A stretch of 64,000 nt of DNA. Source: Eledone cirrhosa (lineage: Eukaryota). The number at the start of each line of letters is the position of its first letter. Position 1 is the first letter of the stretch. This document shows, piece by piece, positions 13,722-64,000 of the stretch. The position numbers and the translations under genes are program-made. The notes below the pieces were generated by a model. That model searched no databases. It was not told the origin of the DNA and saw only the letters and a program-made list of their open reading frames with translations. The stretch covers positions 146,630,001 to 146,694,000 of the forward strand of contig OZ024742.1 in NCBI GenBank assembly GCA_964016885.1. The letters run 5' to 3'.

Positions 13722-13915
13722 GTTTATCCTGGGTTCAATCGGGGGTAACCACAGTAAGTAAGGTACTCAATACATGGAAGAGTATAAATATTTAATATAG
13801 AAGTGTCTTCTACTCGACTAGAACTATTTCATTCGGGAGAAATCATCAGGAAAGCCCTGATGATTTCTCCTGAATGAAACAGTTCTAGTCCTGTAGAAGC
13901 CATTTCTATATTAAT
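13722..13915. mobile_element. Short palindromic HHR element in (TA)n
   Basis: Arms mirror around about 13853; CTGATGA...GAAAC AGTTCTA GTC on the plus strand with a mirrored copy on the minus strand; relatives at 24155 and 47558. Confidence 0.8.
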
Positions 13916-14065
13916 ATATATATATATATATATATGTAAAAGTTCTATTTAAATTGTTGGGATACAACAAGCAAATATTTGTATAACTGATATAAAGCAC
14001 TCAACAAATAATTGGAGTAAATATACGATATTAACAAATGGAAACTATATTTATAAAACCATATT

Positions 14066-14135
14066 TATTTCATTATACATATTTCAAGGACACCAAGTTA
14101 ACTTAAATTATGGTGTGCTTTCATCAGATAAAATA
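14066..14135 (-). ncRNA. Minimal type I hammerhead motif
   Basis: Mirror copy of 14293-14362. Confidence 0.78.
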
Positions 14136-14292
14136 TAATATAGATCAGTTTTATAAATAAATATTGACATACCCTTAAAGAATGCAACCATTACTGTTGG
14201 AAGCTCCCGGATAGTATCCGGGAGCTTCCAACAGTAATGGTTGCATTCTTTAAGGGTATGTCAATATTTATTTATAAAACTGATCTATATTA

Positions 14293-14362
14293 TATTTTAT
14301 CTGATGAAAGCACACCATAATTTAAGTTAACTTGGTGTCCTTGAAATATGTATAATGAAATA
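14293..14362 (+). ncRNA. Minimal type I hammerhead motif
   Basis: UAUUUUAU-CUGAUGA-aag.acacca/uggugu.cuu-GAAA-UAUGUA-UA-AUGAAAUA. Confidence 0.78.
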
Positions 14363-14647
14363 AATATGGTTTTATAAATATAGTTTCCATTTGTTAATAT
14401 ATATATATATATATATATACATATATATATATATATATATATATATATATATATATATATATCATCATCATCATCATCATCGTTTAACGTCTATCTTCCA
14501 TGCTACCATGGGTTTAGACGGTATATATATATATATATATATATATATATATATATATATATATACATACATACATACAATATACATACATGTCATCATC
14601 CTCATCATGATCATCATCGTTTAACGTCCATCTTCCATGCTAGCATG

Positions 14648-14858
14648 GAAACGATCGTTAAATAATGAACTTTTTTTGTTTAATATAAGGAATTGTTTGT
14701 TCATTATTTGTTTAATATTTTATCTTGACTCTGTATACCGTTTTTCTTTCACCGAAAGTCGTTTTTCATTGCATCTCTTCTTTCCATGATATCCGGAATA
14801 CATTGAGTTCTTCATACGGATTGGACACTACCGTAAACTCTTGGTAGATTTATCTACA
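14648..14858 (+). mobile_element. 3'-terminal fragment of the PLE family at 38411-43182
   Basis: Starts with the HHR half GAAACGATCGTT; matches the reverse complement of 38411-38625; ends in (TA)n. Confidence 0.78.
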
Positions 14859-14883
14859 TATATATATATATATATATATATAT

Positions 14884-61500: not shown

Positions 61501-61955
61501 ATAAACTCTACAGGCATGGAGGTGCCGTCAGCCGGGCATGTCCGAGATGCGCGCAGGGTGACGAAACCGTCCTGCACGCACTCGTCCAGTGTCCGAGCAT
61601 TGCTGACTTGTGGGTTTATGTCGAACACCTGCTGTCACCTGTAGGATGGATCCAGCTATCAGCTGAGTCCATCGTGAGGATTTCCCCGCCCTCTTCCTTT
61701 AGCCGGGAAGGGCAGGCAGTTTTTATCTGTCTGGTGGCCATGGCGAAAGAGATAGTATGGTGGACACGTTTGAAAGGGCTGAAGACGAGCACTTACCTCT
61801 TCGGTGATGCCCTGATTAACTTTTTCAAATTTCATTTGAAAAGGAAAATCAGGGTAGAGAGGGAAGTGCTCTCTTCTCAGCATTTTGTTGAAAGATGGGT
61901 GAGAGAGGCAAGAATGGCCCGAGTGAATGGGCTTACTCTGAGTATGTGTCTGTAA
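58536..61955 (+). pseudogene. Tx1 ORF2 APE plus RT
   Basis: SINARGL, GDWN, GYWKLN, KSPGLDG, RQGCPLS, YADD, CPRC..H..C; stops near 59130, 59388 and 61124, frameshift near 60185. Confidence 0.94.
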
Positions 61956-62282
61956 ATTAAAGGTGGAAAACTGGGAGAGGGTACTTGCCCTGGTGGTCAG
62001 GGTCACTGTGTCCTTTTAATGGGCTTTCTCCACAAATGTCCATCCGAGGTCTCACCCCTATTGGGGAATTTTTCATCGTTATTTTTTTGTTACATTCTCT
62101 CTTTTTGTTTTTTTACACGCAGAAATACCCATTTGTACCGTCCTGTATTGTCCTGTACTGTCCTTAATGTCTACTTTATGTAAACCCTTGTGGTTAATAA
62201 AGAAATCATTATTATTATTATTATTATTATTATTATTATTATTATTATTATTATTATTATTATTATTATTATTATTATTATT

Positions 62283-62410
62283 CCTGAGAGGGTCGTGGGG
62301 ACAGAGTCCTCAAACACTCCCTCCAGCAGGCCGTGTCAAAAGCAACTGTCTCCAACTGATTCAGCTGAATCCCTAAGCATGACCAGCCAAGCACATGGAT
62401 GGTATCCAGA
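62283..62410 (-). mobile_element. Extreme 3' end of a Rex3/Expander-like RTE whose tail is (TAA)n
   Basis: Reverse strand reads LDTIHVLGWSCLGIQLNQLETVAFDTACWRECLRTLSPRPSQE* directly into TAATAA. Confidence 0.65.
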
Positions 62411-62741
62411 CTTACCACATAAAAGAAATGTCTTAAAAAAATATATATGTACTGGCTAGCAGGATTAAAATATTATAGACTATTTTACGACAACCTCAAT
62501 GATAAGTTTATGATGAATGTGAAAGCGGAGAGTTTATAATGAAGCAAAGCTGGAGAAAAAGCTTTTCAACCGTACTAACTCGAAGATAAGAATATTTCTA
62601 AATATATTACTTCACATAGTGAAAGCGAGTTAAAAGATTAAGATACTACAAGTTATATATTTGGATAGCCTACATCATGAATGTGTCATAAAACTGAAGA
62701 TATTGGCATTAAAGAGCTGAGCAGAAGATAACAGACATATA

Positions 62742-63040
62742 TATATTAAAGTGTTAAACAATATTCAATGATTATGTCAAAGAATGAGTTTTACAGTAGA
62801 TTGGAAGCACTCAACGAGTAAAATAATTTTCTGAAGTTATTAATATTAAAATATAAGTATTAATAAAATAGATGTTCTTTTGATCAATTACATTTTATTA
62901 TACATATTTCGGATGTACAACAGTACGTCCTCATCAGACAAAATATAATGATACATGACATACCCTGAGATGTTAAATGGTTAAGATGTAATCAAGGTAG
63001 TGATTAACCCGAGAGAAAATTTTACTTATATCCTATTTAT
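62742..63040 (-). mobile_element. Terminal fragment of HHR family 29172-31541
   Basis: 62842-63020 is near-identical to 29172-29350; includes the longer tail. Confidence 0.88.
62892..62944 (-). ncRNA. Minimal type I hammerhead motif
   Basis: Same motif as 31355-31407. Confidence 0.82.
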
Positions 63041-63182
63041 ATTTTAATATATATATATGTACACGCACATATATATATACATATGTGTGTATATATATAT
63101 ATATATATATATATATATATTTGTATTATACATATATATGTATAATATATATATATATATATATATATATATATATATAGAG

Positions 63183-64000
63183 AGATAATTTAATATATCA
63201 ACTAACATAGGCGCACAGATGCACGTCCATGCCAGCAAATACACAGGTTATGTCATAGTACCTAGGTGGTTCAATGCAGGAGGGTGCAGAACAATAATAT
63301 AAAAGACGTAAAATAAGAAAATATTTTTTAAAAAATTTTAAAAAAATTTTTTACTTACTTACTTAAATTTTCACTCCAACTAATTAGTTTCTGCAATGGG
63401 ATAAAGACAGTTACATAATCCAACTGTCGAGAATTCATTGCGTCATCAGGGAGTCTATTCTCAGCTGAGCCTCCAGGCAATGCGCGGACACTAGCGGCTC
63501 ATATAAAAATAATAATTCGGTAGAAAGAACAGCTAGGCGAGGACTGGATTCTATGTACTGAAATTCTCACTGCTTCCAGTCAAATGTCCGATTCTAAAGA
63601 ATCAATCACGTGACATAGAGGCTAGTTAGAAGGAATGGGATGGTAAGATGACTGACGCCTACTAACACCCCAAAAAAAATTTTGAAGTGGTTTTGGCAGG
63701 TTTGCTCGACAAATCAGTGATTTGGAGATAAATATAGATAATTTAATATATCAACTAACATAGGCGCACAGATGCACATCCATGCCAGCAAATACATCCC
63801 ATTCCTTCTAACTAGCCTCTATGTCACGTGATTGATTCTTTAGAATCGGACATTTGACTGGAAGCAGTGAGAATTTCAGTACATAGAATCCAGTCCTCGC
63901 CTAGCTGTTCTTTCTACCGAATTATTATTTTTATATGAGCCGCTAGTGTCCGCGCATTGCCTGGAGGCTCAGCTGAGAATAGACTCCCTGATGACGCAAT
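63183..64000. mobile_element. Retrozyme-like HHR element: 553-bp unit plus partial second unit (-), then an inverted arm running off the window
   Basis: 63183-63243 is repeated at 63736-63796; 63437-63642 mirrors 63795-64000. Confidence 0.87.
63373..63454 (-). ncRNA. Type I hammerhead motif with extended stem II
   Basis: ACUCC-CUGAUGA-cGCAAUG..GACAGUU/AACUGUC..CAUUGCa-GAAAC-UAAUUA-GUU-GGAGU. Confidence 0.85.

Follow-up and report, generated by a model that had tools for sequence, protein, structure and literature searches.

How does a retrotransposon come to be inserted as two inverted copies of itself, with a tail on only one of them? The question is raised by a stretch of 64,000 nt from Eledone cirrhosa (GCA_964016885.1, OZ024742.1:146,630,001-146,694,000, forward strand; hereafter the window), in which Penelope-like elements (PLEs) lie as pairs of head-to-head arms, their 3' ends directed outward and one arm ending further downstream than the other. 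PLEs are the sister group of the telomerase reverse transcriptase (RT).

The head-to-head layout of PLEs with a one-sided tail is already published (PMC8557442, PMC3846280). In its accessible part, Craig 2021 (PMC8557442) describes endonuclease-bearing (EN+) PLEs with an adjacent inverted, 5'-truncated copy, a 30-40-bp tail at one end, which is ascribed to EN-mediated resolution, and a bias for (TA)n; the available text of Arkhipova 2013 (PMC3846280) explains the head-to-head palindromes of Pen2a_Av by self-priming. How the inverted copies and tails arise is treated as an unsettled question in the accessible portions of both papers and of PMC11167929. New here are the near-strict pairing of a long with a short end, a skew in the 5' reach of the arms, coupled stop points and hairpins behind the end sites. 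The pairing rule, the reach rules and the hairpin cis-elements were not found in the published literature searched.

Pairing of long and short ends

Self-comparison of the window recovered inverted head-to-head arms, 3' ends outward, at all twelve sites named in a preliminary description of this DNA (Table 1), the one at 63183 being completed outside the window, where its right arm ends in (TA)n at L011:5785. Four further pairs (10193, 14884, 26616 and 43231) were found beyond these. The polarity of the arms, fixed independently of the TA flanks, is also as described, with left arms sense on the minus strand and right arms sense on the plus strand. A hammerhead-core motif has 19 matches in the window against 5 in shuffles; twelve of the 19 fall in the listed arms or in the additional site 43231, and all twelve point outward (seven on the plus strand in right arms, five on the minus strand in left arms). 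PLE open reading frames lie on the plus strand within the right arms of 34359, 38411 and 43231. One arm had been said to stop about 25-170 bp before the other, and the one-sided tails indeed measure about 26-175 bp. The 3' ends run into (TA)n at most flanks, as claimed; clean (TA)n is, however, replaced by a short or degenerate tract on the left of 22985, 29172 and 38411 and on the right of 25724.

Orientation statistics bore out the layout beyond the window. The sample comprised 14 blocks on a fixed grid (1.39 Mb), and the library 34 family rows built from real copies; row D is chimeric, and no D pair enters the grid-sample counts of end pairing or reach. Arms (n = 433) were classed by 3' end as ending at a proximal short site (S), at a distal long site (L), or as unclear. 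Both sites are fixed within a family, L lying 26-175 nt downstream of S. The sample contained 118 head-to-head pairs without (TA)n between the arms (2-13 per block) and no same-family inward pair without intervening (TA)n, which argues that the head-to-head layout is not due to chance. Although about 34 families were available, partners belonged to the same family in 115 of the 118 pairs. Both ends could be classified in 95 same-family pairs, and every one of these joined an L arm to an S arm (76/76 after removal of the events that define the references), with the L arm on the left in 50 and on the right in 45.

Recognised pairs account for 236 of the 433 arms; 197 lie outside any recognised pair, twelve of them with tiny partners. 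Among the 150 unpaired arms with an S or L end, 12 have a same-family partner of 12-76 nt or a distant one, complementary in end type in 12/12; 95 have no recognisable partner, 40 could not be scored, and three were scored as other family, two of these at chance level and one of the same lineage. In the targeted sets, of which F tail and F shared region overlap each other, L+S made up 23/23 pairs in B, 22/22 in F tail, 16/17 in A and 13/16 in F shared region; the exceptions were one L+L pair in A, and one S+S and two unclear pairs in F shared region. The geometry, which had been called uniform, is therefore common, with many arms outside any recognised pair and overlap not universal, but among arms that do form a pair the L+S rule has almost no exceptions.

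Some candidates were rejected. The three "other family" pairs among the 118 look like related subfamilies or chance and were not kept as true mixed pairs. Four inward inverted repeats bearing a hammerhead core were considered as inward pairs, three of which hold (TA)n between the arms and are separate insertions. The fourth (L193:9540-10000 with L194:1-150) is a palindrome that mirrors flanking DNA plus an M-like PLE arm with the ribozyme core inward, and may be an inverted duplication or an assembly artefact. Three end sites were seen in families I/I2 (0, +60, +170) and P (0, +29, +90), at L021:3473-4440, at L216:6556-6785 and in other P copies.

Candidate priming sites, hairpins and arm reach

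At the S site, element and TA target share a median of 3.5 nt over 19 families, against 1.2 in the null, and read-through copies show similar short TA matches at the L site by eye. These matches support the two alternative AU-rich sites that the preliminary description had suggested; its idea that both ends of a broken (TA)n tract act as primers is likewise supported. In 18 of 34 families, RYTC with a downstream complementary word stands about 4-9 nt behind S, compared with 1/34 in a control stretch and a mean of 2.1 in shuffles. Given a 2-nt bulge, the upper stem, whose positions were not used in choosing the pairing partner, is base-paired at 49 of 54 positions, in varied sequence, against 11-27 with other bulges. 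A relaxed descriptor of this hairpin matched behind S in 18/34 families and behind L in 6/10 read-through copies, against a background of 12/710; the strict descriptor behind L also matches J. Six families (B, P, J, K, U19 and U37) present both hairpins. Family I2, which has a hairpin behind its middle end site, was left out of this count because its L site is the hairpin-proximal one.

The 5' reach of the arms was resolved in 74 pairs (75 before one ambiguous pair was dropped; the other 20 of the 95 could not be resolved), arms within 10 nt of each other being taken as equal. The S arm reached further in 30, the arms were equal in 33 and the L arm reached further in 11 (p=0.004); in 55 targeted pairs the same classes numbered 32, 17 and 6. 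Equal stop points were observed in 29 of 49 pairs against 13.6 expected from permuting arms within families, and the L arm was further in 4 of 49 against an expected 12.2 (p<1e-4 for both).

The arms had been said to overlap, unlike the products of L1 twin priming. Overlap is indeed usual (> 30 bp in 60/74 pairs), but nine of the 74 pairs have none, the L arm stopping short of S in a deletion-type arrangement like that of classical twin priming. L1 itself presents overlap in 17% of 5' inversions, with a median of 22 bp, according to the available text of bioRxiv 10.1101/2024.08.27.596794, so in this respect the contrast with L1 is one of degree.

Joining of the cDNAs, as the preliminary description had it, agrees with the junctions. 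Microhomology averages 1.9 nt against 0.9 nt (19 junctions, a noisy measure), and short inserted letters occur at 25 of 44 scored junctions, these being the scorable ones of 111 events. Among the 33 equal-reach pairs, 13 have loops of 0-2 nt. The junction position differs at nearly every locus, and in family A it varies among 30 tail-selected copies. A junction-biased query had suggested that copies of family A derive as whole units from one fixed hairpin master; this was rejected, since queries with the tail alone recover junctions that vary, along with upstream sequence of the parent. In families A, H, M and B, junctions across the genome concentrate at points particular to each family, in A just 5' of the hammerhead core (13850-13857), and often at short palindromes; these points may be RT pause sites.

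The two arms of a locus resemble each other more than they resemble arms elsewhere. In family B the median divergence is 1.2% within a locus against 8.3% between loci, with the own partner closer in 18/18 cases; in family F the values are 3.3% and 7.1%, with the own partner closer in 12/13. Subfamily markers were fully concordant between the arms at 32 of 40 loci. Edited RNA as the template was rejected: the private variants present in both arms include 10 A>G and 10 T>C out of 70 and give no signal.

Probable double priming on one RNA, and the alternatives

For the observed geometry, pairing rule, reach skew and coupling, variable junctions and hairpins, we propose as the probable origin a programmed form of twin priming, in which a single RNA is primed at two AU sites marked by hairpins and end joining follows. 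A dimeric PLE protein would dock on the two hairpins of a single RNA and nick both (TA)n strands. Each target 3'-OH would pair with 2-5 nt at one of the sites and then be extended, S and L being primed from opposite strands. The enzyme primed at L would trail the one primed at S and re-copy the same RNA by displacing the first cDNA, and would thus usually halt at or before the point reached by the S arm. The cDNA ends would then be joined by blunt, microhomology or short-fill repair. To our knowledge, the RT of PLEs lacks an RNase H.

A single RNA primed twice accounts for the data better than two because same-end pairs are absent from the grid sample, partners are nearly always of one family, markers are mostly concordant and stop points are coupled; separate templates for the two cDNAs, which the preliminary description had proposed, find no support as a general rule. 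Moreover, the excess of equal reach and the scarcity of pairs with the L arm further are as expected if one polymerase trails another on the same RNA. The proposal resembles L1 twin priming as presented in the accessible part of bioRxiv 10.1101/2024.08.27.596794, in that both nicked ends prime on one RNA, microcomplementarity joins the products, and deletion- and duplication-type junctions occur. L1, however, uses its poly(A) and a random internal site, in a minority of insertions, whereas here there is no poly(A) and both sites are internal and fixed. The proposed process would work like L1 twin priming but is distinct from it.

A close biochemical parallel is PAc, a Poseidon element from the green anole (Frangieh et al. 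2024, PMC11167929), which in vitro cuts and extends both strands of an AT-rich target and starts at two internal sites matching the tail ends; a dimer is the modelled form. PAc and the present proposal have in common a pair of internal RT start sites at the limits of the tail, an AT-rich target, cutting and extension of both strands, and a predicted dimer. On the other hand, the PAc sites were linked neither to inverted copies nor to a pairing of sites, and the PAc start region is an AC-rich stem-loop inside the ORF, in contrast to the bulged RYTC/GARY hairpin found here (PMC11167929).

Several observations weigh against this proposal. As to the end rule, 20 of the 115 same-family pairs have an unclassed end, and two of them could be same-end pairs; besides, there are one L+L pair (L278), one S+S pair (L260) and one mixed-family pair (43231). 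Hairpins are missing behind S in 16 of 34 families and behind L in C, E and N; the ten read-through copies were hand-picked, with rows B, I2, P, U19 and U37 represented by one locus each. Blind covariation of the outer base pair is weak (12/24, p=0.05), fold z-scores are mostly not significant and folding energies are unremarkable, so the case for the hairpins rests on pairing and position. The L arm does reach further in 11 of 74 pairs. Overlaps exceed 100 bp in 25 of 75 pairs, with 624 bp at 27561 and 1.6 kb at 38411, and such lengths demand of the one-RNA model an efficient strand displacement that is shown for no PLE RT. At three of the 40 loci the arms disagree in two or more markers, older families have many shared variants confined to a single arm (F 36 vs 39, A 57 vs 42), and the similarity of the arms could come partly from later gene conversion. 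The in vitro PLE study (PMC11167929) concerns another clade, Poseidon.

It would relieve the difficulty of long overlaps if each cut end primed on its own RNA, the two RNAs being held by the subunits of a dimer and the cDNAs then joined, for no displacement would be needed. The discordant loci and the mixed-family pair at 43231, which is still L+S, also suit two RNAs, and the in vitro data do not separate one RNA from two (PMC11167929). We nevertheless consider this reading unlikely. Independent choice of sites predicts about half same-end pairs, against 0/95 in the grid sample and two in the targeted sets, and two RNAs leave the same-family partnership among about 34 families to be explained; the dimer would have to be asymmetric, one subunit always taking S and the other L, with both RNAs from the same source locus. 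Stop-point coupling, in turn, exceeds what family-specific pause sites would give, as judged by the within-family permutation. None of 19 other C copies carries F sequence, and 43231-45342 arose either from two RNAs in one event or from a later family C insertion in which the partner of an older F arm was lost by deletion. Two-RNA events, such as this mixed-family insert, are probably a minority.

Fold-back, or self-priming, in which a single cDNA turns back to serve as its own template and the resulting second arm is trimmed by the endonuclease at an AT-rich spot, so that only one side keeps the tail, accounts at once for L+S, the common family and the identity of the arms, and the equal-reach pairs, several of them perfect palindromes, look like its products. 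It needs, however, the second arm to be contained in the first, and the short-ended arm goes further 5' in 30/74 pairs and in 32/55 targeted ones (in the window, non-nested arms occur at 19261, 22985, 27561 and 38411). The pairs without any overlap do not suit it either, and the loops of 0-2 nt are too small for a primer hairpin. The non-nested arms, together with the pairing rule and the coupled stops, argue against published self-priming as the general route, which we hold to be improbable, but fold-back may make part of the equal-reach class or some palindromes. Less probable still is a switch of the L-primed cDNA to an antisense transcript of the same element, run out to S and joined by TA microhomology. 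It permits non-nested arms, the TA homology at S could be a mark of repair rather than priming, and bidirectional promoters in the pLTR are suggested in the accessible text of PMC3846280; but it leaves unexplained that S is constant to within a few nt and directly precedes a hairpin whose conservation is on the sense strand, and the two ends of the tail serve in vitro as starts on sense RNA (PMC11167929). Fold-back chimeras of sequencing or assembly are the most improbable source. The arms at 13937 and 63183 are identical, and among the contigs listed the 13937 centre and the 25724 junction are not bridged by 31 letters on both sides; yet the family-specific tail is on one arm only, the flanks of the two sides differ, arms differ by substitutions and indels, an insert is one-sided at 29172, and there are non-nested arms and a different junction at nearly every locus. 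Public-run contigs also show other family B arm-to-arm joints at depths of about 10-400, weak evidence since each joint has sides of 20-30 letters.

Returning to one RNA primed twice, the wider claim would be that Hydra- and Neptune-type PLEs ordinarily integrate by priming at both ends, with a dimer on twin bulged hairpins of a single RNA and a trailing RT that displaces the leading cDNA. We advance this claim tentatively, with the chances close to balanced but slightly against it. If true, the inverted arm, the tail and the L+S rule would be one mechanism, unlike any described target-primed reverse transcription, and this route would have filled the genome with hairpin-forming inserts, whose number would be roughly 250,000, extrapolated from 118 pairs in 1.39 Mb, provided that the 14 blocks represent the whole genome. 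The two hairpins and two AU sites are named cis-elements that can be mutated in the existing in vitro system, making PLE integration directly testable, and a retrotransposon that itself extends both target strands would be of interest for insertion tools. The third of pairs that overlap by more than 100 bp may be a source of double-stranded RNA if the loci are transcribed.

Identity of the elements and layout of the window

By their sequence motifs, the window inserts are EN+ PLEs of Hydra and Neptune type together with non-coding or ribozyme-repeat derivatives, in agreement with the preliminary description. GIY-YIG-type motifs lie C-terminal to the RT in the elements at 34359, 38411 and 43231, all copies being broken; Pfam gives only a weak RVT_1 match in one element (E 0.0015), and the Atlas look-alikes of the PLE proteins are RT/HTH_animal clusters (0.94-0.97). 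Family I has the Neptune-type features of a CX4CxxC linker, two Cys inside GIY-YIG, His residues and DKSG, while J, C and F have the Hydra-type CxxC and CxH around a conserved E and N (less clear for CxH in C) and lack CCHH, both classes being assigned by motifs and not by a tree. The Hydra CxCX5C linker is complete in J, has its last Cys changed in C and is not covered in F. For the DKT / RWK motifs of Hydra there is a lone Trp before CxxC, the N-termini being truncated or broken in the copies read. The CxCX5C-type linker, CxxC/CxH and (TA)n targeting are shared with the Hydra clade as described in the available part of Craig 2021; family I is Neptune-type, not Hydra, yet presents the same insertion geometry. 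Upstream of its RT, at 34496-35464, is a 322-codon Asn-rich open frame that recalls the N-rich inserts of rotifer Penelope elements mentioned in the accessible text of PMC3846280.

A hammerhead core, by motif match and hence a predicted ribozyme, is present on the sense strand in families A, B, C, D, E, G, I, K, M, Q and others; Rfam gave no hammerhead among the best 150 of 159 matches in the window, only repeat-driven miRNA and tRNA-like rows. Several families have no coding sequence, some of them being retrozyme-like tandem arrays of ribozyme repeats. Non-coding tandem units make up families K (553 bp), E (318 bp) and N; a hammerhead core is present in K and E, and the motif search found none in N. 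Non-LTR retrozymes, as far as the available text of PMC7229834 and bioRxiv 10.64898/2026.07.22.740005 goes, are likewise non-coding tandem hammerhead units, but the full PLE signature of K, E and N (an inverted arm and L+S ends, with twin hairpins in K) is not described for them there.

The window elements show 5' truncation, a tandem or inverted copy and a one-sided tail; any target-site duplication would be hidden within the (TA)n. With the published EN+ PLEs they share a head-to-head copy, a one-ended tail, 5' truncation, partial tandems, a hammerhead near the 3' end and (TA)n targets. They differ in tail length (26-175 bp here, 30-40 bp there) and in that the tail is described as optional in those elements, whereas long and short ends are paired almost obligately here; the accessible parts of PMC8557442 and PMC3846280 contain no pairing statistics or hairpin.

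Table 1. Paired PLE arms and an example hairpin in the window (site, position by which the insertion is cited in the text).
Feature	Site	Coordinates	Strand	Tail (bp)	Description
Family A pair	13722	13722..13913		61-71	Long-ended arm left (-), short-ended right (+); 5-nt loop just 5' of hammerhead core; arms 61/69 identical
Family B pair	13937	13937..14396		81-96	Long arm left, short right; arms identical over ~182 bp, 1-nt loop
Family C pair	19261	19264..19466		62-68	Short arm left extends ~55 nt further 5' than long right arm, not nested; homology to 45090-45342
Family D pair	22985	22985..23321		26	Long arm left; 134-bp spacer is part of right (short) arm, hammerhead core at 23148; not nested
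Family E pair	25724	25724..26289		29	Left arm 1.15 units of 318-bp tandem ribozyme repeat; right arm 196 bp
Family F pair	27561	27562..29082		172-175	Short arm left (728 bp including 104-bp spacer), long right; arms 615/624 identical; not nested
Family G pair	29172	29173..31540		84	Arms of ~1.1 kb, tail right; ~220 bp of unrelated DNA (like a short interspersed element by eye) only in right arm
Family H pair	33587	33589..33787		75-80	Long arm left, short right, no central loop
Family I	34359	34361..38030		52	157-bp short arm left; right arm a 3.5-kb broken Neptune-type PLE with the tail (Asn-rich stretch, RT, CX4CxxC linker, GIY-YIG)
Family J	38411	38411..43181		138	1.70-kb long-ended arm left; right arm a 3.1-kb broken Hydra-type PLE with short end; not nested
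Mixed-family pair	43231	43231..45342			F-related long arm (-, 43231-43427) joined to 5'-truncated Hydra-type family C element with short end; 3-nt microhomology
Older family A pair	47558	47558..47753		65	Short arm left, long right
Family K	63183	63183..64000		125	Long arm left (63183-63797, 1.1 units); right arm 3.6 x 553-bp tandem ribozyme-motif units, leaving the window
Extra pair, family Y	10193	10193..10854		166	Short arm left, tail right
Extra miniature pair, family I2	14884	14884..14984			Long arm left, 34-bp short arm right
Extra pair, family X	26616	26616..26829		38	Long arm left, no loop
Bulged-hairpin example		28915..28985	+		Just behind short site, in tail of family F; RYTC-NNN ... 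N'N'N'-TN bulge-GARY; in minimum-energy fold

Neighbouring insertions have one (TA)n tract in common at 43182-43229 and at 13914-13935, and elements pile up in clusters in this way. Solo PLE arms without a recognised partner lie at 9970-10121, 14648-14857, 16013-16175, 24155-24243, 38058-38345, 46316-46399 and 62748-63040, and the non-coding family N has tandem copies on the minus strand at 32789-33500, with no partner arm recognised.

Among the other repeats of the window, a 93-bp unit is repeated ten times (97% matches) at 20326-21252, within 19866-22036, flanked by two copies of a dispersed repeat, and a 37-bp minisatellite follows at 22036-22270. Broken non-LTR retrotransposons with endonuclease and RT frames are located on the plus strand at 707-4019, 54303-56000 and 57012-61955. 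An RT with a PHD finger lies at 47854-49553, and an RT fragment at 17268-17963.

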